A stretch of DNA of 32,000 bases from Acaryochloris thomasi RCC1774 (GCF_003231495.1 NZ_PQWO01000004.1:120001-152000), one strand, 5' to 3'; counted from the first letter of the stretch, positions 5,726 to 26,115 are shown. The notes: generated from the sequence alone by a model not told the origin. Translations and numbers: made by a program.

Positions 5726-6769
5726 GTGCAGAAGATCCAGGCGGTTTTATGTGGCTACTATGGCTTTGGGAATGGCGGAGATGAGGCGTTGCTGGCGGCG
5801 CTGCTGCAGATGCTGCCGGAGCATGTGACGCCGCTGGTGTTGTCCAGTGACCCAGCCGCAACAGAGAAGCTGCACGGCGTTGAGAGTTGCGATCGCAACC
5901 ACTTTTCCACCGTCTTTTCTGCCCTGCGGTCCTCTCAAGCCTTCATCTGGGGCGGCGGTAGCTTAATCCAAGACGCCACCAGCGCTTTAAGTCCGGTTTA
6001 CTATACAGGACTCATGTTTCTGGCTCAAAGGCTCGGACTTAAAACAATTGCTTGGGCGCAGGGGATTGGTCCCCTTAACTATCGTCGCAATCGCTGGCTA
6101 GCAAAGCAAACCTTTAAGGGCTGTGCAGGGGTTAGCGTTCGCGATCGCAACTCCACTCAATTCATCCAAGATTGGAAGCTGCAGGCCAGCCAAGCCCCTG
6201 ACCCCGTTTGGGCGCTGGACGCCACCTCTGTTTATCGGCGGGTCGAACTCCCCAACCCTCGCATTGCCGTGTCGCTGCGTGCTCACCCCCTGTTGACACC
6301 GCAGCGACTGCAGCACCTAAGCGAAGCGTTAGTGCTGTTCCAGAATCAAACTCAAGCCTCGATTCTGCTGCTGCCCTTTCAGCCCCGCCAAGATCTAGAC
6401 ATCGCCCAAGCGCTGCAGAAACAGCTCCAAGGGCCGAGTCAGGTGCTGCAGCTCAGCGATCCGCGTCAGCTCAAAGGCGTTTTTCAGACCGTAGATATGA
6501 CCATTGCCATGCGCCTCCATGCTTTGATTATGGCTGCGGCAGAAGGCTGTCGCTGCGTGGGTTTGAGCTATGACCCCAAGGTAATGCAGCTCATGACAGA
6601 TATCGACTGTCCCGGCTGGGAACTTGAAGATTTGCCCACTCAACCGCAGACGATTAGTCAAGTTTGGGTTGAGCACTATCGTCAGGGACAGGGGCTGACC
6701 GAAGCCAGCAGGAATGGACGATGCAGCCAAGCTTTAGAACATCAAAAGATTTTAGAGCAGGTGCTTTAG
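5726..6769 (+). CDS. csaB: polysaccharide pyruvyl transferase CsaB
   Basis: The N-terminus VQKIQAVLCGYYGFGNGGDEALLAALLQMLP is the CsaB hallmark. The longest ORF starts at 5645 but overlaps the DUF2499 gene, so the GTG at 5726 is the more plausible start. Confidence 0.8.
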   Translation: MQKIQAVLCGYYGFGNGGDEALLAALLQMLPEHVTPLVLSSDPAATEKLHGVESCDRNHFSTVFSALRSSQAFIWGGGSLIQDATSALSPVYYTGLMFLAQRLGLKTIAWAQGIGPLNYRRNRWLAKQTFKGCAGVSVRDRNSTQFIQDWKLQASQAPDPVWALDATSVYRRVELPNPRIAVSLRAHPLLTPQRLQHLSEALVLFQNQTQASILLLPFQPRQDLDIAQALQKQLQGPSQVLQLSDPRQLKGVFQTVDMTIAMRLHALIMAAAEGCRCVGLSYDPKVMQLMTDIDCPGWELEDLPTQPQTISQVWVEHYRQGQGLTEASRNGRCSQALEHQKILEQVL

Positions 6770-6825
6770 CGCTCTGCCACTGCAGTCAGCTACGTGACAC
6801 CGCCTGAATTTCATCATGAAGACGG

Positions 6826-7200
6826 CTATCGCAGTCGTGATAAGTGACGTTCGGCTAGCCAATACCCCAACCCCACACCCAAAAAGCTCATGACCAGATC
6901 GAGGCCATCGAAGCTGCGATTAGGTGAAAAAGCCTGCAGTCCCTCCTCAACGAGTGTAAAGCTCCCAAAGGCAATCACCCAGAGCGGCAGACGGAACCGT
7001 CCAATCCGTTGCCAGCGCAGCACCCGATGCCCCAGGTAGGTGGCAATGCCGTAAATAATCAAATGTCCAGGCTTATCGTAGTTGGGAATAATCGCGAGCT
7101 GTGGCGGTAGGTTGCCGGTGTAGGCCACCACTAATAGGACGCTAAAAGCTACTGCATACAGGAGTCCAAGAGCGATCCAACATCCTTTTTGCTCTTTCAT
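6826..7200 (-). CDS. VanZ-like family membrane protein
   Basis: 124 aa with four hydrophobic segments. It has DKPGHLIIYG and EEGLQAFSPNRSFDGLDLVMSFLGVGLG motifs, as in VanZ-like proteins. Confidence 0.65.
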   Translation of the reverse strand: MKEQKGCWIALGLLYAVAFSVLLVVAYTGNLPPQLAIIPNYDKPGHLIIYGIATYLGHRVLRWQRIGRFRLPLWVIAFGSFTLVEEGLQAFSPNRSFDGLDLVMSFLGVGLGYWLAERHLSRLR

Positions 7201-7425
7201 AATCTGTGATCGATGCCTTGTTTATCTCAGCGTGCCCTCATTGCCTGACGTAGGCCCCAGGTCATCCGTTAAAGACTGAAACCGTGTTGAGAGACTGTCA
7301 ACACGTATAACTTTGATGAAATGCAAAAGCTATACAGAAAGAAAACACATCGCATACCTGCACTTGGGGCATTCTATAAGTAGACATATTTGTCTTTTCA
7401 TCTATCTGGGGAACACCACAGCTAT

Positions 7426-7460
7426 GCTCTGACATTGGTTCTGTCAGGGCATTTTTTTTA
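7426..7460 (+). terminator. orphan rho-independent terminator-like hairpin
   Basis: GCTCTGACA-TTGGTTC-TGTCAGGGC forms a 9-bp stem including one G-U pair. It is followed by A-TTTTTTTT-A. No plus-strand gene ends within about 650 bp upstream. Confidence 0.5.
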
Positions 7461-7485
7461 TTCACAATAGAGAACTCTACTTATC

Positions 7486-7915
7486 TTGGCTAGAGAAGCT
7501 GAACCCGGCAGTATGCTGACGCTGAGCGATAAAACCTTTGAACTTCAGCCGTTTCATTTCCACACTCCCAGTGAGCATACGGTAGAAGATGAGACTTTCC
7601 CGATGGTGGTTTATTTGGTTCACCAGAGCGCTGAGGGGAGGCTGGCTGTGCTGGGGGTGTTCTTGAAAGAGGGCTAAGTCAATGGGGATTTACAGCCGAT
7701 TTGGGATGCAATGCCCGCTCGAAAGCAGCTAGAAATATTGCTACTTCGGGTCTCTTACCACGCCGCCCTGTTCAGAAGTTGTACAGTGGGTGGTTTTTCA
7801 AGAAGCGCTAGAAATTTCCCAAGCTCAGATTGACCCATTCAAGCAAAGCTTTCCGCTCAAGGCTCGGCCGGTGCAGCCTTTAAACCGGCAATTCTTACTG
7901 GAAGAGGTGCCCTAA
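7486..7915 (+). pseudogene. alpha-carbonic anhydrase (EcaA-like) pseudogene
   Basis: FELQPFHFHTPSEHTVEDETFPMVVYLVH...LAVLGVFLKEG is followed by an in-frame TAA at 7675-7677. The frame then changes to YFGSLTTPPCSEVVQWVVFQEALEISQAQIDPF...ARPVQPLNRQ. About 100 N-terminal residues, including any signal peptide, are missing, and there is an internal deletion. Confidence 0.85.
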
Positions 7916-7918
7916 ACG

Positions 7919-8488
7919 CTAGCGTCCTTGCTCTCGCGCATGAGAGATACCGCCATAGGGCTGCAGCAAGTGCTCCACAGCCTGATCAAAATAGACGATA
8001 TCTTTCATGCAGACCGCCATCATCATCGCTCCCTGCAGCCCCGCCACTAACGTTGCAGCCTGACTCTGACGCTCTGCAAGCGCCACTTTGGCAGGCAGCA
8101 CCTCAGCAACCCAGTCCATATTTCCTTGCAAGAACCGCTGTACAGCCTTAACCACAGGCTCCGGTAAACCACCGCTTTCGACCCCTAACATACCGCAAAG
8201 ACAGAGGGTATCGTTGGCGACTAATGAGGCTCGATAAAGGCCGCAGAACTCCTGTAAACAGAGGGCCGCAGAGTCTTGAGACACGCGAGCTAATGCCGCC
8301 TCAAACTGCTCTGTATAGCGATGGACAAGGGCAACGCCCAGATCCTCTTTTTGGCGAAAGTAGTAATGCACGCTAGAGCTTTTAATGCCCAAATCCTCCG
8401 CTAAATCCCGGAAGCTGACGGCATGATAGCCAGAGGTGCGGATGCGCTGCTCTGCAGCGTCTAACAGGCGGTTGATCGTATCGGCCAT
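7919..8488 (-). CDS. TetR/AcrR family transcriptional regulator
   Basis: N-terminal HTH RTSGYHAVSFRDLAEDLGIKSSSVHYYFRQKEDL. It is divergent from the GST gene. Confidence 0.9.
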   Translation of the reverse strand: MADTINRLLDAAEQRIRTSGYHAVSFRDLAEDLGIKSSSVHYYFRQKEDLGVALVHRYTEQFEAALARVSQDSAALCLQEFCGLYRASLVANDTLCLCGMLGVESGGLPEPVVKAVQRFLQGNMDWVAEVLPAKVALAERQSQAATLVAGLQGAMMMAVCMKDIVYFDQAVEHLLQPYGGISHAREQGR

Positions 8489-8558
8489 TCATTCACTGTG
8501 ACATTGCCCCTCTCTGAGTATAAATAGCCTTGACAAAGATTGATGGGATCGGTCATTG

Positions 8559-8578
8559 TCTATCTATCGATAGATAGA
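8559..8578. promoter_or_regulatory. perfect 20-bp palindrome, candidate TetR operator
   Basis: TCTATCTATCGATAGATAGA is its own reverse complement. It lies 14 bp upstream of the GST start and follows a TTGACA hexamer at 8530-8535. Confidence 0.6.
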
Positions 8579-8591
8579 GAGTGCTTCTAGT

Positions 8592-9212
8592 ATGAAAGTC
8601 TATGAATTCAACGGTCTCCCAAATCCGGCACGGGTCCGCATTGCCCTTGCTGAGAAGGGTTTGACGGAAAAGGTCGAGTTTATTTCTGTCGATGTGCCCA
8701 ATGGTGAGCATCGGCAGCCCGAGTTTTTAGCAAAGAATCCCTTGGGGGCCGTCCCTGTTCTAGAGCTAGAGGACGGCACCACGATTTCTGAATGCACAGC
8801 GATCACAGAGTATCTTGACCACATTACGGGCGAGATCACTTTGACCGGACGCACTCCCAAAGAGCGGGCCACGATTCACATGATGCAGCGTCGTGCTGAG
8901 TCCGGGTTGCTGGATGCGGGTACCACCTATTTCCACCATGCAACGCCGGGGCTGGGTCCCGATCTAGAGACCTATCAGTGTGCAGAGTGGGGTCAGCATC
9001 AGCGGCAAAAGGCTGTCTCAGGGATGCATTATTTCAATGAGGTGCTGGCGAAGCAGGACTATCTTGCCGGTGAGCAGTTCTCGATGGCTGATATCACAGC
9101 CTTTGCGGGACTGGCCTTTGCAGACTTTGCCAAAATCGATATCCCGGTGGAGTGTGGTCATTTGCAGGCATGGCGTGAGCGTGTCAGTCAGCGCCCCAGC
9201 ATCTCAGGTTAA
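8592..9212 (+). CDS. glutathione S-transferase family protein
   Basis: N-terminal thioredoxin-like fold (NPLGAVPVLELEDGTTISECTAITEYL) and a C-terminal helical domain (FSMADITAF). Confidence 0.85.
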   Translation: MKVYEFNGLPNPARVRIALAEKGLTEKVEFISVDVPNGEHRQPEFLAKNPLGAVPVLELEDGTTISECTAITEYLDHITGEITLTGRTPKERATIHMMQRRAESGLLDAGTTYFHHATPGLGPDLETYQCAEWGQHQRQKAVSGMHYFNEVLAKQDYLAGEQFSMADITAFAGLAFADFAKIDIPVECGHLQAWRERVSQRPSISG

Positions 9213-15325: not shown

Positions 15326-16294
15326 TCAAACATCAAGAGGACTGCGGACACCCAATACACCTTGATTGAGAACATGGGTGTATACCATAGTCGTTTTGAG
15401 ATCTTTATGTCCCAAGAGTTCTTGCAGCGTCCGAATATCGTAGCCATTCTCTAATAAATGGGTGGCGAAGCTATGACGCAGGGTGTGACAACCTACTTTC
15501 TTGTTAATGCCTACTTTTTGAGCGGCTCTCTTGACTGCTTTTCGGATGACGCTCTGATCTAAATGGTGCCGCCTTGTTTTACCGCTGCGAGGATCGATGG
15601 ACCGTTTAGTAGAGGGAAAAACGTATTGCCAAATCCATTCTCGATTGGCCTCTGGGTATTTGCGTTCGAGAGCATTGGGCAGGTATACCTCTCCATAGCC
15701 TTGAGCCAAGTCATCTTGATGAATTTGTTTGACTTGAGTGAAATGAGCTTGCAAGAGTGGAGTAAGTGTTTGGGGGAGAACGGTCACTCTGTCACGTTTG
15801 CCCTTAGTTTCTCGAACTGTAATTTGTGAATGCCCGAAATCGAGGTCTTTAACTCTCAATCGTAAGCCTTCAGTCAACCGCATTCCTGACCCGTAGAGGA
15901 GTTTAGCAAACAGTTGCTGAATGCCGGACATGCCTTGCAGTAAGCGTTTTACCTCACCAGTTGTAAGGACTGTTGGTAGATGTTGTGATTGTTTGGCGCG
16001 AACGGCATCAATAGAGTCACCTAGAGGTTGCTTAAGAACGTATCGATAGAGGAACAGCAAAGCGCTGAGAGCCTGATTTTGGGTCGACGCAGCGACATCT
16101 TGGTGAACCGCTAAATGGGTTAGAAAGGCTTCTACTTCTGGTTCTGACATCTCTTGCGGGTGACGCTTATTGTGAAACAGAATAAATCGTCGAATCCATT
16201 GAACATAGCTTTCCTCGGTTCGATAAGCATAGTGCTTGGTACGCATGACATCACGCACTTGATCAAGCAGCTTTTTCGGTTTAGTCGCTTGCAT
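15326..16294 (-). CDS. intI: integron integrase IntI
   Basis: The N-terminal SAM-like domain is [33 protein letters not shown]. The catalytic residues are present: R ([12 protein letters not shown]), HxxR ([12 protein letters not shown]) and H/Y ([16 protein letters not shown]). The IntI-specific insertion is also present: [42 protein letters not shown]. The longest ORF reaches 16369, but the ATG at 16294 ([10 protein letters not shown]) matches usual IntI N-termini better. Confidence 0.9.
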
Positions 16295-16515
16295 CTGACA
16301 TGCCCAATAAAACCCTAGATTGTCATATATGGCGGAAAATTGCCTTCTAAATTTCTGTGAAGCAGCCAAGAAAACATCCCTAATTCCTTTTATGCAAAGA
16401 CATTAGCCGATTAGGATAAGATTCTTATATCAGGCTAGTTGCTCAATATATCTTTCAAGCTAAAAGTGTTACCCTGCCTTTAGCTAAGACTTTCAACGCG
16501 GTTTATTCTTTCTTC

Positions 16516-16550
16516 TTAGGAGGCAATTTGCCTCCTAAGCATAGTTAGCC
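16516..16550 (+). other. attI-like recombination site
   Basis: A 23-nt palindrome TTAGGAGGCAA-T-TTGCCTCCTAA is followed by GCATA-GTTAGCC. The segment CCTAAGCATAGTTAGCC resembles the attI1 simple site CCTAAAACAAAGTTAGGC (from memory). Several additional TTAG[GC] motifs lie upstream at 16410-16490. Confidence 0.55.
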
Positions 16551-16606
16551 TATCTTTGTAAATGGGCATACTACTGTGATGTACTGTCATTTCTTTATTT
16601 GAAACT

Positions 16607-16900
16607 ATGGCTTACGCTCATGAAATAAAGTTTTTCATCAAAGATAAAGATTTATACGCTGCTCTATTTGATAATCCGCCCTTTTTTGCTAATGAGTTTT
16701 GGATTAAAAATGTGAAAGCACAGGAGCTGGGAATATCTGAATTACCTCAAAATGTAAAACTTGAGCAAAAGTATAAAGTGGAAGACCTAGGAATCAAGCC
16801 ATTTCACACAACTAAACCTGAATTTGAATTCATGGATGCGTTGGCTGAAACTGCCTGGAAAAAGGGTGTTAAACTGGCCATTGGCTCTTTTCTCCCTTGA
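16607..16900 (+). CDS. integron cassette 1 ORF, hypothetical protein (97 aa)
   Basis: A single ORF between the attI-like GTT (16544) and attC1. It is AT-rich compared with its flanks, and I recognise no family. Confidence 0.55.
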   Translation: MAYAHEIKFFIKDKDLYAALFDNPPFFANEFWIKNVKAQELGISELPQNVKLEQKYKVEDLGIKPFHTTKPEFEFMDALAETAWKKGVKLAIGSFLP

Positions 16901-16954
16901 GTGGATACGAAGCGATTGCCTCTAGCCAATAAAGTTTGTAGGCTCTGTGTTTTT

Positions 16955-17046
16955 GTCTAACAATGGTATGCAAATGGACGCTCGAAACACGCTACTTGTC
17001 AACGCTTTAAAATAATTCTCGCGCCCCTGATACCAAGACGTTAGAA
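16955..17046 (+). other. attC site 1
   Basis: It begins with R''-like GTCTAAC and ends with R'-like GTTAGAA, which are inverse complements at 6 of 7 positions. The internal arms TGGTATGCAAATGGACGCTCG and CGCGCCCCTGATACCA pair imperfectly, with bulges. Confidence 0.75.
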
Positions 17047-17088
17047 ATACGTATCTACTCACAATCTAGTACAGCGATAAAACTGCCA

Positions 17089-17769
17089 ATGCCGCTTGAA
17101 CTACATAACTACGTTTGGAGTGGAGAATGGTTGATTCAGATTGAGAGTCAGCCCAGTCATATTGATGGTGTACTAGATACCGTTCAAAATGTACGAAAAA
17201 GTTCCAATCTAGATTGGGAAGATATTTATTCAGCCTATTATGAGTGTGAAGAAGACGGCACCATTACTTTCTACGAAGGCGAAAGTTCAGAGGCGGGGAA
17301 TCCAGGGGTATGGACTTATGTCGTGTACGACTGTCCTGAAGGAAAGGAGGAGGTTTTATCCAATCCCAACATTGATGTTCTAGCTGCCTTATTAAAAGTT
17401 GAGCGTGGCATTCAAGACAGGAAAAACAGCAGAGCAGATCTACTACCACACGCAGAAAATGCGGTGGTCGATATTCGCAAGCTACGTGACTATTGCCTTA
17501 ATCCAGAGCATGATGCTGGAAAGCATAAGGCTCGTTTGTTTTTCTCAATTTTAGGGATGACTGCTGAACACGCTGATGAATTGCAAGCGATTCTGCTCAA
17601 AATTGTTAAGACAGGTGACGTTTGCTTAGGAAGGCAAGATCAATTTGGGCAACGCTACACACTAGATTTTGTTCTTGAATGGCACAATAGAAGTGCGACT
17701 CTTCGGAGTGGATGGATGCTCGAAAATGGTTCAACAGTCCCGAGATTAACAACCTGTTATCCATTGTAG
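17089..17769 (+). CDS. integron cassette 2 gene A: unknown N-terminal domain plus DUF6883-like C-terminal domain
   Basis: 226 aa. The C-terminal half, VVDIRKLRDYCLNPEHDAGKHKARLFFSILGMT...GQRYTLDFVLEWHNRSATLRSGWMLENGSTVPRLTTCYPL, fits the DUF6883 pattern as I remember it (K-L-x-x-Y-x-L-N-x-x-H...KA-x-x-F ... P-R-L-x-T-x-Y-P). I do not recognise residues 1-115. Confidence 0.65.
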   Translation: MPLELHNYVWSGEWLIQIESQPSHIDGVLDTVQNVRKSSNLDWEDIYSAYYECEEDGTITFYEGESSEAGNPGVWTYVVYDCPEGKEEVLSNPNIDVLAALLKVERGIQDRKNSRADLLPHAENAVVDIRKLRDYCLNPEHDAGKHKARLFFSILGMTAEHADELQAILLKIVKTGDVCLGRQDQFGQRYTLDFVLEWHNRSATLRSGWMLENGSTVPRLTTCYPL

Positions 17770-17787
17770 TTAGTGGAGGTAAGAACA

Positions 17788-18036
17788 ATGACAGCAAATT
17801 CTATCAAGTTACTAGATGTTGTAGCATTGACAGTCGATTTACCAGATTACAACTTGTGGTGTGGGCAAGTTGGTACCGTGGTTGAGACGTTGGCTACTGA
17901 GACTGCATTTGAAGTTGAGTTTAGCGATCGTGACGGACGAACATTTGAGTCTATTGGATTACGATCAGAGCAAATAATGGTGTTGCATTTTGAGCCAGCA
18001 TCGCCAGACTTAAAGCCTGCAATGGTAGCAACATAA
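17788..18036 (+). CDS. integron cassette 2 gene B: DUF4926-like small protein
   Basis: 82 aa from the ATG at 17788, preceded by GGAGG at 17775-17779. It starts 18 nt after the stop of gene A. LLDVVALTVDLPDYNLWCGQVGTVVE...FEVEFSDRDGRTFESIGLRSEQIMVL matches the DUF4926 pattern from memory. Confidence 0.65.
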   Translation: MTANSIKLLDVVALTVDLPDYNLWCGQVGTVVETLATETAFEVEFSDRDGRTFESIGLRSEQIMVLHFEPASPDLKPAMVAT

Positions 18037-18141
18037 ACCAGCGCAACAACCGTATTGCAACGAAGAGTATCAAAAACCTGATAAGGGTTCGGTGTTGTGA
18101 TTAATTGTCTCAGTCGTAAAAGCTTTTCCGTCTATTTGTTT

Positions 18142-18233
18142 TTCTAACAAGCCCATGCAAGGGACGCTCCGCAATAAGTGGCTGCTGGGTACTTTAGATC
18201 CTGTTCGCGCCCCTGGTGGCTGAGCAGTTGGCC
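18142..18233 (+). other. attC site 2 (terminal, more degenerate)
   Basis: It has the same length as attC1 and shares the blocks TCTAACAA, ATGCAA, GGACGCTC, CTTTA and TCGCGCCCCTG. It ends with GTTGGCC. Confidence 0.65.
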
Positions 18234-18293
18234 CATTGCTATTATCGCTAGGTATTAAGAAAGCTGATAGATACCAGGCCACAACCTATCTAT

Positions 18294-19757
18294 TTACCGG
18301 CGCTGCGAAATACTGAGGGCTAGAACATAGACATAGCCACTCCAAAACAGCGCCAAAAACGGAATTGATAGAAAATGCTGGTTGTTGAGGGCCACCCCAA
18401 TCGTAATTGTTAGATAAACAGCCATAAACAGCTCAAGATATGGAAGCAGATTTCTTGCGGCCCGGTATTTCTTGGTTTTCCAGCTTTCTTGGCGACTGAC
18501 AACCCCGTGCTTTGGAGTGCGGATAAAATCAACACCACCCCCAAACAAACCTGCACAGACTGCTAGAGACTGATTAATACTTAGCCCAATCCCCACACTC
18601 ATGAGCAGAACGATGTTGTGAACTAGCTTCCACAGCGGTAGCTTAAGAGGTTGCTCACGCGTAGAAACGAAGTAGAAGCACAAAACACTCAACGTCGTGA
18701 TCAAAAATAGAGGCAGATGAATGAATACTCCATGCTGCCAAGGTGCCTGCGTTAGGTAGATCTGATAGGGCAGAGACAGCAGTAGCAACGCCATCAACAG
18801 CAAATAGTTAAAGTTATTCGTTAAATGCAGAAACGCCTCCCCTTTGACGCTGAGCGGTGCATTGGATTTGAGAATCGGCAGCAACAGCTTCTTCATTACC
18901 TGACTGGCCCCTTTTGCCCACCGAAACTGCTGAGCTTTGAAGGAATTCATCTCCATCGGTAGTTCCGCCGGTACGATCATCTCCGGTAAATAAATGCACC
19001 TCCAGCCCTTAAGCTGCGCTCGATAGGATAGATCTAAATCCTCTGTCACCGTGTTGTGCTGCCATCCACCGGCATCGGCAATGGCCTCAGTCCTCCAGAT
19101 ACCAGCGGTGCCGTTGAAATTGAAAAAGCATCCCGAACGGTTGCGAGCCGTTTGCTCGGTCACGAAATGCCCATCCAGCATCAGGGACTGCACTTCAGTC
19201 AATCTAGAATAGTGACGATTGATGTGTCCCCATCGGGCCTGCACCATCCCCAACTGAGGATCTGAAAAGTAATGCACCATTTTGAGCAGCGTGTCAGGTG
19301 CCGGGACAAAATCAGCGTCAAAAATCATCACCAGCTCCCCAGATGCTGACTGGAGGCCATGTTCTAATGCACCCGCTTTGAAGCCCGTCCGATTGTGGCG
19401 ATGAATGTAGTGAATATTTAGATCTCGTGTTTGCAGCTCTTCGACCTTGGAGCGGCACAGGGTTTGCGTTTCGTCCAGAGAGTCATCGAGAACCTGAATT
19501 TCTAGTTTTTCCCGAGGGTAATGAATGTGGGCAATGGCTTCTAGCAGGCGGTCAACGACATTGATTTCATTAAAGATGGGTAATTGAATCGTGACCGACG
19601 GCAGTTCCCAATCAGAATAGTAAGACTGAGGCTGAGGAACATTGTCTCTATATTTATAGAAGCGCCAAACAATCGAGACTTTGTGGAGGCTGTATAGCCC
19701 GATAATGATTAAAAGACCCAGATAGATTTTATAGATATTTTCTGATAGCGCGCTCAT
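18294..19757 (-). CDS. family 2 glycosyltransferase, processive beta-glycan synthase type (CslA/cellulose-synthase-like)
   Basis: Motifs VLDDS, FDADF (DxD), TEDLDLSYR (TED) and QQFRWAKG (QxxRW). One N-terminal and several C-terminal transmembrane helices. Confidence 0.85.
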   Translation of the reverse strand: MSALSENIYKIYLGLLIIIGLYSLHKVSIVWRFYKYRDNVPQPQSYYSDWELPSVTIQLPIFNEINVVDRLLEAIAHIHYPREKLEIQVLDDSLDETQTLCRSKVEELQTRDLNIHYIHRHNRTGFKAGALEHGLQSASGELVMIFDADFVPAPDTLLKMVHYFSDPQLGMVQARWGHINRHYSRLTEVQSLMLDGHFVTEQTARNRSGCFFNFNGTAGIWRTEAIADAGGWQHNTVTEDLDLSYRAQLKGWRCIYLPEMIVPAELPMEMNSFKAQQFRWAKGASQVMKKLLLPILKSNAPLSVKGEAFLHLTNNFNYLLLMALLLLSLPYQIYLTQAPWQHGVFIHLPLFLITTLSVLCFYFVSTREQPLKLPLWKLVHNIVLLMSVGIGLSINQSLAVCAGLFGGGVDFIRTPKHGVVSRQESWKTKKYRAARNLLPYLELFMAVYLTITIGVALNNQHFLSIPFLALFWSGYVYVLALSISQRR

Positions 19758-19974: not shown

Positions 19975-20296
19975 ACTCAAAGTTGAGGTCGTCAAGGACT
20001 CTCTTTCCGTGACTCAACAAGACCTCATTTTGTTGCCAAGAGATGCAGCCAATTTCTGATGTCAGAGTCCTGACTTCCTGGTTGACTGAAAAAAGTTGAA
20101 GCTGGCGAATAAAATTCGCGCCTATAAGAACGAAGTCAATCATCCCTTCTCCAAGTGGGACAGCATTTTCAGTGATTCAATGGTGACAGTGGCTGCGGTA
20201 GATTGCCTTGTCCATCATGCCCTCATTACTGAAATCAAGGCTGAGAGTTATAGAAAGCAGGCGACTGCAAACTGCGCTAAAACCAAGTCATCGTAA
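19975..20296 (+). pseudogene. IS21-family IstB (ATP-binding helper) C-terminal remnant
   Basis: ...NHPFSKWDSIFSDSMVTVAAVDCLVHHALITEIKAESYRKQ matches the IstB C-terminus pattern (F-x-x-W...D-R-L-x-H-H...SYR). Upstream DLILL (the DLLILDE region) is interrupted by stops and deletions. There is no Walker A motif and no istA. Confidence 0.65.
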
Positions 20297-25122: not shown

Positions 25123-26115
25123 ATGCGTAGGAAGCTATTGCCTATTTTTCTGGGTTTGTTTCTGGCCCTCGGATGTGGCTTCATCACTCAAGCTGCGCCC
25201 AGCCTGAAATTGGGGCAGCCCATTGACTGTACTCTCGGCCAAAACTGCTTTGTTTTAATTTATCCCGATCGAGATCCGGGGCCAGACGCTGTTGATGTCG
25301 GCTGCGGCCGGATGACCTACGACGGCCATAAGGGGACAGACTTTGCCATTCCAGACGAAAGAATCATGGCTCAAGGTGTTGCCGTAAAAGCTGCAGCAGC
25401 GGGAACCGTACTCCGCATCCGCAATGATATTCCGGATCAGCGCATCAAAGACCCTGCTGATACATCTGCGGTTGAGGGCATGGAATGTGGCAACGGTGTG
25501 GTCATTGACCACGGCCAGGAGTGGGAGACTCAATATTGCCATTTACGTCAAGGCAGCGTAGCCGTCAAATCTGGAGACACCGTCGCGGAGGGAAGTGTTT
25601 TGGGCCTCGTGGGAACCTCTGGAGCGGCATCGTTCCCCCATGTTCATCTAAGCGTTCGCTACCAAGGTCAAGTGATTGATCCGTATGTGGGGCCAAATGC
25701 CGAATCGGGGTGTCAAACATCTAAGCAACCGCTCTGGAAGACTGACCTCCCCTATCAACCGACGGGATTGATCCGAGCGGGGTTTGCGCCTCAGCTCCCC
25801 GATCTCGATCAGCTATGGTCTGGAGCCTTTTCAGACTCTGCTCTCGCTGCAAATAGCCCTGCCGTTGTTTTTTGGGCGCACAGCTATGGCGTTCTCCAAG
25901 GTGATCGAGAACGTTTACAGTTGCTTGATCCAACAGGAAAGGTCGCCGCTGAGCTGGAGCGTCCGCTTTCTCAGGCTCAGCGGGTATGGGTCGCTTCTAT
26001 CGGTAAAAAGAACACCTCAACGGCTCTTCTCTCAGGTGAATGGGTCGGTCAATACCAACTCTTCCGTGACAATCAACTCTTAATCGATATTGAGAAGACC
26101 ATCCGTGTGGAATAA
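25123..26115 (+). CDS. M23 family metallopeptidase (secreted)
   Basis: Signal-like N-terminus, then the zinc motifs HKGTDFAIPD and GTSGAASFPHVHLSV. Confidence 0.85.
   Translation: MRRKLLPIFLGLFLALGCGFITQAAPSLKLGQPIDCTLGQNCFVLIYPDRDPGPDAVDVGCGRMTYDGHKGTDFAIPDERIMAQGVAVKAAAAGTVLRIRNDIPDQRIKDPADTSAVEGMECGNGVVIDHGQEWETQYCHLRQGSVAVKSGDTVAEGSVLGLVGTSGAASFPHVHLSVRYQGQVIDPYVGPNAESGCQTSKQPLWKTDLPYQPTGLIRAGFAPQLPDLDQLWSGAFSDSALAANSPAVVFWAHSYGVLQGDRERLQLLDPTGKVAAELERPLSQAQRVWVASIGKKNTSTALLSGEWVGQYQLFRDNQLLIDIEKTIRVE

Follow-up and report, generated by a model that had tools for sequence, protein, structure and literature searches.

A small chromosomal integron, in all likelihood complete, in the cyanobacterium Acaryochloris thomasi RCC1774

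A stretch of 32,000 nucleotides from the chromosome of Acaryochloris thomasi RCC1774 (GCF_003231495.1, NZ_PQWO01000004.1:120001-152000; hereafter the window, from whose first letter all positions are counted) carries, between positions 15,326 and 18,233, a gene for a tyrosine recombinase, divergently oriented open reading frames (ORFs) and two imperfect palindromes of 92 bp. The question raised by this locus is whether these parts belong together as an integron, with an integrase gene (intI), an attI site and gene cassettes closed by attC sites, as had been predicted from the sequence alone, or whether a recombinase of another kind lies by chance next to unrelated repeats. We found that the locus is very probably a complete small chromosomal integron of A. 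thomasi RCC1774 with a two-cassette array. The canonical intI/attI/cassette-attC layout of the original prediction was borne out by the profile scores of the integrase, by a covariance model of attC sites, by the conservation of attI in relatives and by the complementarity between the start of the second cassette and the R'' box of its own attC.

The integrase and the attI site

The intI gene occupies positions 15326..16294 on the minus strand and encodes a protein of 322 amino acids, hereafter IntI (GenBank PZD73819.1, 'XerD'; RefSeq WP_110985598.1). It is called 'Tyrosine recombinase XerD/XerC' in GenBank and UniProt and 'integron integrase' in RefSeq. The former name speaks for a XerC/XerD-type chromosome-dimer resolvase, whose neighbourhood would then be coincidental. 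On the NCBIfam profile TIGR02249 ('integron integrase'), however, the protein scored 480.1 bits for a cut-off of 265, thus passing an integron-integrase profile, whereas on the XerC and XerD equivalogs it reached 154 and 152 bits for cut-offs of 335 and 330. Two Pfam domains, Phage_int_SAM_4 and Phage_integrase, were recognized in IntI. Residues 10-320 could be aligned with VchIntIA/IntI4 (PDB 2a3v) with an E-value of 7e-98 and with zero gaps over residues 205-244, which include the integron-specific insertion. In contrast, the alignments of XerA, XerC and XerD with IntI were split into separate N- and C-terminal pieces around this insertion. The 37-letter stretch that had been quoted as the IntI-specific insertion corresponds to residues 208-244, and the ungapped alignment with VchIntIA confirmed it as such. 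The profile scores already refute the assignment to the Xer resolvases, to which we attach virtually no probability; the two-piece alignment of the Xer structures and the renaming of the protein in RefSeq point the same way. With the assignment to the integron integrases, the GenBank name 'XerD' is corrected.

The full tyrosine-recombinase catalytic set that had been reported for this ORF was recovered. Residues R139, K164, H270, R273, H296 and Y305 (RKHRHY) are invariant in an alignment of 16 sequences (IntI and 15 relatives), and they pair with R135, K160, H267, R270, H293 and Y302 of 2a3v, which we take to be the catalytic residues of that protein. Contacts of VchIntIA with the extrahelical bases of its substrate are made by P232, H240 and H241 and by Q145, W157, K209, Y210 and W219, and residues K156 and R168 of IntI1 are the counterparts of Q145 and W157 (PMC3053210). 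At the aligned positions, IntI has P235, H243, H244, K149, R161, K212, Y213 and W222, which is the IntI1-like version of the set. As judged from these alignments, IntI belongs to the integron-integrase family and has kept both its catalytic residues and its predicted extrahelical-base contacts. Homologues lend no support to an alternative TTG start of intI at 16369.

Dozens of cyanobacterial integron integrases with 70-83% identity to IntI were returned by a protein search; the members of this group named were from Thermosynechococcaceae, Neosynechococcus, Rubidibacter and Spirulina, and the Nodosilinea and Microcystis proteins were found at 59-63%. A scan of genome contigs with a profile made from the IntI alignment gave, among the matches listed, mostly distant IntIs of 55-68% identity. 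A second integron integrase is encoded by A. thomasi RCC1774 on another contig (PZD72427.1 / WP_110987077.1); it is 69% identical to IntI.

The original prediction placed an attI-like site ending in GTTAGCC divergent from intI, and this motif is indeed present at 16544-16550. The attI core (16509..16550, plus strand) consists of a perfect 12+12 palindrome at 16515-16539, of sequence CTTAGGAGGCAA-T-TTGCCTCCTAAG, followed by CATA-GTTAGCC, the palindrome thus lying just upstream of a crossover point between G16544 and T16545. The block CTTAGGAGGCAATTTGCCTCCTAAGCATAGTTAG, comprising palindrome and crossover, is conserved upstream of IntI in two related loci, L081 (83% identical IntI) and L084 (75%). 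The part shared by A. thomasi, L081 and L084 is the palindrome plus ATAGTTAG, and the three sequences diverge directly after GTTAG. A similarity that ends at this point is what one expects if different first cassettes have been joined to one kind of platform. In these relatives, the conservation of attI, the putative target of IntI, ends precisely at the crossover. A relative of the palindrome (80-85% related) was noticed at 16331-16350, 185 bp away and just upstream of the intI start. We regard both the palindrome at 16515-16539 and this copy as candidate sites for the binding of the integrase or of a regulator.

The attC sites and the cassette boundaries

The two elements that follow attI on the plus strand are attC1 (16955..17046; R'' GTCTAAC, R' GTTAGAA; crossover G17040/T17041) and attC2 (18142..18233; R'' TTCTAAC, R' GTTGGCC; crossover G18227/T18228), the latter forming the end of the array. 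Each is 92 nt long, they are 76% identical by column, and they have in common the blocks ATGCAA, GGACGCTC and TCGCGCCCCTG. These imperfect palindromes, with the ends and shared blocks first described for them, were found at exactly the predicted coordinates, and the attC model described below gave the same boundaries. The pattern TCTAAC-N6-9-ATGCAA-N1-5-GACGCTC has two matches in the window and none in 100 shuffles.

A covariance model of cyanobacterial attC sites, based on 51 attCs from chromosomes, has been published (Ghaly 2021, PMC8352920); its cut-off for taxon assignment is 61 bits, at a sensitivity of 60.8%. We transcribed this model from Supplementary Data 1 of that paper (265 states, every transition and emission vector summing to 1) and scored the window with our own scanning routine, a glocal Cocke-Younger-Kasami (CYK) algorithm, so that the scores given here are not the default local Inside scores of Infernal. 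When both strands of the 32 kb were scanned, only two sites rose above 0 bits: 16955-17046 with 18.95 bits and 18142-18233 with 6.32 bits, each on the plus strand. Both predicted elements were thus detected by this attC model. Under the glocal-CYK calibration supplied with the model, attC1 has an E-value of about 6e-4 and attC2 one of about 0.09 for 64 kb of strand. The best score in 29 dinucleotide-preserving 32-kb shuffles was 3.86 bits, which is consistent with a calibration that is, if anything, conservative. The opposite strand of both elements scored below 0 bits. As positive controls, the same scanner found 11 sites of 6.6-60.8 bits upstream of the integrase in locus L084, one site of 65 bits in a Nodosilinea locus (L003) and four sites of 41-73 bits in a Microcystis locus (L013), the latter two also upstream of the integrase. 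All control sites were on the strand expected for cassettes, the opposite strand scoring far lower. The scores of attC1 and attC2 are in the lower part of the range found in real arrays.

Other detection methods were less informative. A sequence-only nhmmer search with the filter hidden Markov model of the attC model placed both elements in its top four matches. The segments 587-666 and 25933-25962 ranked equally in that search (E about 0.03); they do not have the attC structure and score below 0 bits on the full model, and are probably chance matches. A hand-written rule for R-box/L-box palindromes proved unspecific, giving about 2.6 chance matches per shuffle and missing attC2. No match was obtained when the window was scanned with Rfam at gathering thresholds; Rfam holds no attC family.

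Both sites span the full model without deletions, with 16 of 18 model pairs formed in attC1 and 16 of 20 in attC2 (18 of 20 in its circularized form, see below). The AA spacer that follows R'' in the model is present in both. In the R''-L'' arm, the unpaired bases of the model, G at position 16 and A at position 23, are also found in both sites, separated by six bases in attC2 and by seven in attC1; a spacing of six between extrahelical bases was reported as optimal for several integrases (Larouche and Roy). On the bottom strand the two unpaired bases would read C and T, the cyanobacterial consensus, as opposed to the T and G of Vibrio repeats.

In an integrated cassette, the six bases located 3' of each G/TT crossover belong to the next cassette. 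The two cassettes therefore extend from 16545 to 17040 and from 17041 to 18227. The first six bases of cassette 2, from 17041 on, are TTAGAA and exactly complement the R'' box (TTCTAA) of attC2, which closes this cassette. When these six bases were joined to attC2, as in the circularized form, the score of attC2 rose from 6.32 to 18.64 bits, a gain of 12.3; for attC1 circularized with TTAGCC, the score rose from 18.95 to 21.2 bits, a gain of 2.3. The bottom strand of circularized attC2 closes a full hairpin at -13.0 kcal/mol, versus -10.3 for the top strand. The cassette boundaries thus obey the G/TT logic. If the established integron mechanism applies here, IntI would recombine the double-stranded attI site, at G16544/T16545, with the folded bottom strand of an attC. 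Circular cassettes would be inserted at attI and excised by attC x attC recombination, and their transcription would start from a promoter in the intI/attI region.

Two imperfect palindromes that are 76% identical could also be copies of a general extragenic repeat, of the repetitive extragenic palindrome or miniature inverted-repeat transposable element type, located by chance near a tyrosine recombinase and having no role as recombination sites. An unexceptional folding energy (see below) would fit such a repeat, and the view of the genome was limited to 32 kb. No further copy is present in these 32 kb, however, and the strand and the order of both copies are those that cassettes leaving attI should have. 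The elements also fit, in their R''/R' boxes and unpaired bases, a model trained on other genomes, which their opposite strand does not, and the start of cassette 2 is complementary to the R'' box of attC2. Finally, relatives of the elements sit in multi-attC arrays. A scan of metagenomes with the pattern gave 120 matches, mostly due to chance, and became useful only once these had been filtered by the covariance model. After this filter, attCs of the window type remained in loci L108, L133 and L209, with scores of 32-46 bits, in each case within arrays of 2-5 attCs and beside unrelated ORFs. In L133, four minus-strand ORFs are each followed by an attC, and the site of the window type closes a cassette with a 129-amino-acid ORF that is unrelated to any protein of the window. 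The same attC type thus bounds unrelated genes in other arrays. Two covarying pairs were observed in this small attC family, 13-74 (TA/CG/GC) and 14-73 (AT/TA/CG). We consider an extragenic repeat very improbable on these grounds, and retain the two elements as the attC sites of an integron.

A search of the nearest IntI loci revealed none of the conserved attC blocks. In one of the related loci, L084, the 11-site array (7400-9180) next to the 75%-identical integrase contains repeated units of about 170 nt, each with a pair of neighbouring attC-like sites (such as 7406-7494 and 7562-7648).

Cassette cargo and the state of the array

All three cassette ORFs lie on the plus strand and point away from attI, as the original prediction had it, except that ATG 17788 is a more likely start of the third than GTG 17773, the annotated form being the one of 82 amino acids. 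The three ORFs had also been described as being of unknown function. This description still applies to the ORF of cassette 1, and no longer fully to the two ORFs of cassette 2, which belong to the DUF6883 and DUF4926 families, a proposed toxin/immunity pair. Neither PADLOC nor PHROGs gave anything useful for any cassette protein.

Cassette 1 (16545..17040, 496 bp) runs from the attI crossover to the G/TT of attC1. Its single ORF (C1752_01627, 16607..16900, plus strand, 97 amino acids) has no function assigned, and searches of Pfam, NCBIfam, PADLOC and PHROGs gave no family for it. Its homologues (n=81) are all from cyanobacteria where the organism is named, except for one record labelled Candidatus Gracilibacteria, and the close homologues that were inspected are stand-alone genes without attC. 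The AlphaFold model (predicted local distance difference test, pLDDT, 78) had no fold match in PDB by Foldseek, the best E-value being 0.88.

Cassette 2 (17041..18227, 1187 bp) carries a putative two-gene toxin/immunity module followed by the relic of an attC. The first gene (C1752_01628, 17089..17769, plus strand) encodes 226 amino acids, of which residues 119-225 match PF21814 (DUF6883; E 3.5e-25). At this position only a 119-amino-acid DUF6883 protein is annotated in RefSeq (WP_110985825.1), the 226-amino-acid form being that of GenBank. More than 40 homologues from cyanobacteria share the full form, with 60-84% identity over the N-terminal 118 residues, so that it is probably the correct one. 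These 118 residues matched no family and gave a low-confidence AlphaFold model; confidence was limited to residues 119-226 (pLDDT above 90), modelled as helices and a four-stranded sheet. The second gene (C1752_01629, 17788..18036, plus strand) encodes 82 amino acids that match PF16277 (DUF4926; E 2.9e-25). DUF6883 has been reassigned to the BECR-Tox3 ribonuclease toxins, with DUF4926 as their conserved downstream immunity partner (bioRxiv 10.64898/2026.08.28.747851, preprint). In cassette 2 the two domains occur in this order in adjacent genes, and the same pairing was found in loci L087-L090. Family membership and gene order thus suggest that the cargo of cassette 2 is a probable toxin/immunity pair, comprising a putative BECR-Tox3 RNase toxin and its putative immunity or antitoxin partner. 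A Foldseek search of PDB with the DUF6883 domain returned no significant match (best E 0.011, to designed proteins) and speaks neither for nor against a BECR fold. Toxin-antitoxin cassettes that stabilize chromosomal arrays are well known in other integrons. By analogy, the DUF6883/DUF4926 pair may stabilize the array of A. thomasi.

Between the stop codon of the DUF4926 gene and attC2 lies a segment (18041..18141, plus strand) that begins with GCGCAAC and represents the decayed relic of a different attC. A third cassette ending at this segment was considered and rejected, as the relic scores -15.5 bits. The gene pair of cassette 2 (17058-18058) recurs with 82% nucleotide identity in loci L087-L090, between a 2253-amino-acid ORF and gyrB. 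In L087, which is from another cyanobacterium, the pair (5950-7040) has a different attC (6953-7039, 36.8 bits) five bases past the stop codon. No integrase was found within 6 kb of the pair in L087-L090, which looks like a solo cassette or a CALIN-like insertion (CALIN: cluster of attC sites lacking integron-integrases). The relic in the window is homologous to the intact-looking attC of L087, so that cassette 2 would have undergone either a fusion with an ORF-less unit downstream of it or a replacement of its attC. As far as sequence comparison can tell, cassette 2 is thus probably a fusion or attC-replaced unit. Its present terminal attC has the type found on the neighbouring cassette 1. 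This raises the possibility, which we put forward tentatively and hold to be somewhat doubtful, that cassette 2 records such a replacement or fusion as part of a more general process, in which cassettes would be refitted with attCs matching the resident array or integrase. If attCs were routinely refitted in this way, the locus would represent a natural intermediate and would bear on the origin of cassettes and of attCs.

Several observations weigh against the reading of this locus as an integron. The DNA folding energies of both elements were no better than those of shuffles (z-scores of -1 to +1.3). Bottom-strand folding, which had been suggested as a check, therefore gave a divided answer: attC1 formed a hairpin as expected, bulged on the 3' arm, and the unpaired G and A were found on the model alignment, but the energies resembled those of shuffled sequences. 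Since none of the z-scores is significant, these attC sites cannot be recognized by their stability alone. At 19 and 6.3 bits, the two sites fall well short of the 61 bits that the authors of the model use as a cut-off for taxon assignment, and with an E-value of about 0.09 the array form of attC2 is marginal. Scans of the intI/attI region for promoters and terminators revealed nothing above chance: four sigma-70-like matches were obtained, versus a shuffle mean of 6.2, and the plus-strand match at 16144-16173 lies inside intI.

Some of these observations would also be expected if the locus were an integron by descent that is now inert, that is, a fossil platform in which recombination has ended and whose two cassettes are fixed as chromosomal genes. 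A tiny array of two cassettes, attC scores that are low compared to the 30-73 bits of many cyanobacterial attCs, an attC inside cassette 2 that has already decayed to -15.5 bits and a promoter signal not above chance all agree with such a fossil. However, the intI ORF is intact and has lost none of the catalytic residues or of those at the extrahelical-base contact positions, attI is conserved in related loci, and both terminal attCs align over the full length of the model without deletions. Moreover, the perfect complementarity between the R'' box and the first six bases of cassette 2 argues against a long neutral decay. We therefore regard an inert platform as unlikely, if far from negligible, and keep the interpretation of a complete small integron.

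The GC content is 0.37-0.45 over attI and the cassettes (16250-18250) and 0.46-0.55 in the flanks. This drop, the attCs of the window type in L108, L133 and L209 and the recurrence of the cassette 2 gene pair with a different attC are indirect signs of mobility. The flanking genes are ordinary chromosomal ones and encode a TPR protein, an NAD(P)-binding protein, an uncharacterized protein of 199 amino acids, a family-2 glycosyltransferase, a GNAT acetyltransferase and a MarR regulator, the glycosyltransferase gene (18294-19757, minus strand) being the next one past the array. About 1.9 kb beyond the array end, a 66-amino-acid ORF (20096-20296, plus strand) matches the IstB_IS21 profile solely over its final 43 positions (E 1.2e-10) and is a fragment of an IS21-family helper gene. 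No tRNA gene was found in the window.

Significance and comparison with known integrons

Contrary to the remark in the original prediction that integrons are uncommon and barely studied in cyanobacteria, the phylum has been present in surveys since 2007-2008, an attC model from 51 of its sites is available and, as described above, many of its IntIs are 70-83% identical to that of A. thomasi. Cyanobacteria are listed among the integron-bearing phyla by Nemergut 2008 (PMC2426708), where Boucher 2007 is also cited, and by Cury 2016, the IntegronFinder paper (PMC4889954); their attCs were modelled by Ghaly 2021 (PMC8352920). In the literature searched, we found no paper linking A. thomasi with an integron and no report of an experimental recombination test of an integron in a cyanobacterium. 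The present locus adds to a poorly characterized cyanobacterial set a well-delimited integron, with attI and attC boundaries defined to the base, and it combines a putative toxin/immunity cassette and a relic attC within a very small array. With one integrase, one attI and two attCs, it offers a compact candidate system for a first recombination test of this kind. It leaves the knowledge of how integrons work unchanged.

Among known systems, the chromosomal integrons of other cyanobacteria are the closest. The A. thomasi locus has in common with them the IntI clade, the divergent arrangement of intI and cassettes and the attC consensus (R'' xxCTAAC, AA spacer, unpaired G and A, R' GTTAG). It differs from them by its very small array of two cassettes and by its attC type (ATGCAA…GGACGCTC…TCGCGCCCCTG), which scores low on the model of the phylum. 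With the solo cassettes and CALINs it is connected through the DUF6883/DUF4926 cassette of L087-L090, which has its attC and no integrase nearby. The cassettes of A. thomasi, by contrast, are directly attached to intI and attI, which makes the locus a complete integron and not a CALIN.

The superintegron of Vibrio cholerae contains well over a hundred cassettes, compared to two in A. thomasi. The two systems have in common a full-length homologous integrase with the additional domain (the 7e-98 alignment given above), a chromosomal location, attCs that resemble each other within the array (VCRs in V. cholerae) and a toxin-type module among the cassettes. They differ in the predicted contacts with the second extrahelical base, which are IntI1-like in A. 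thomasi (K149 and R161, instead of the Q145 and W157 of VchIntIA), and in the bottom-strand unpaired bases, predicted as C and T where V. cholerae has T and G. With class 1 mobile integrons, the locus shares the three-part platform, the G/TT crossover logic and the K and R residues at the positions equivalent to K156 and R168 of IntI1. Unlike these integrons, it is not carried by a transposon or a plasmid, it has no resistance genes, no Pc promoter was identified in it by the sigma-70-like scan, and its attI sequence is unrelated to theirs.

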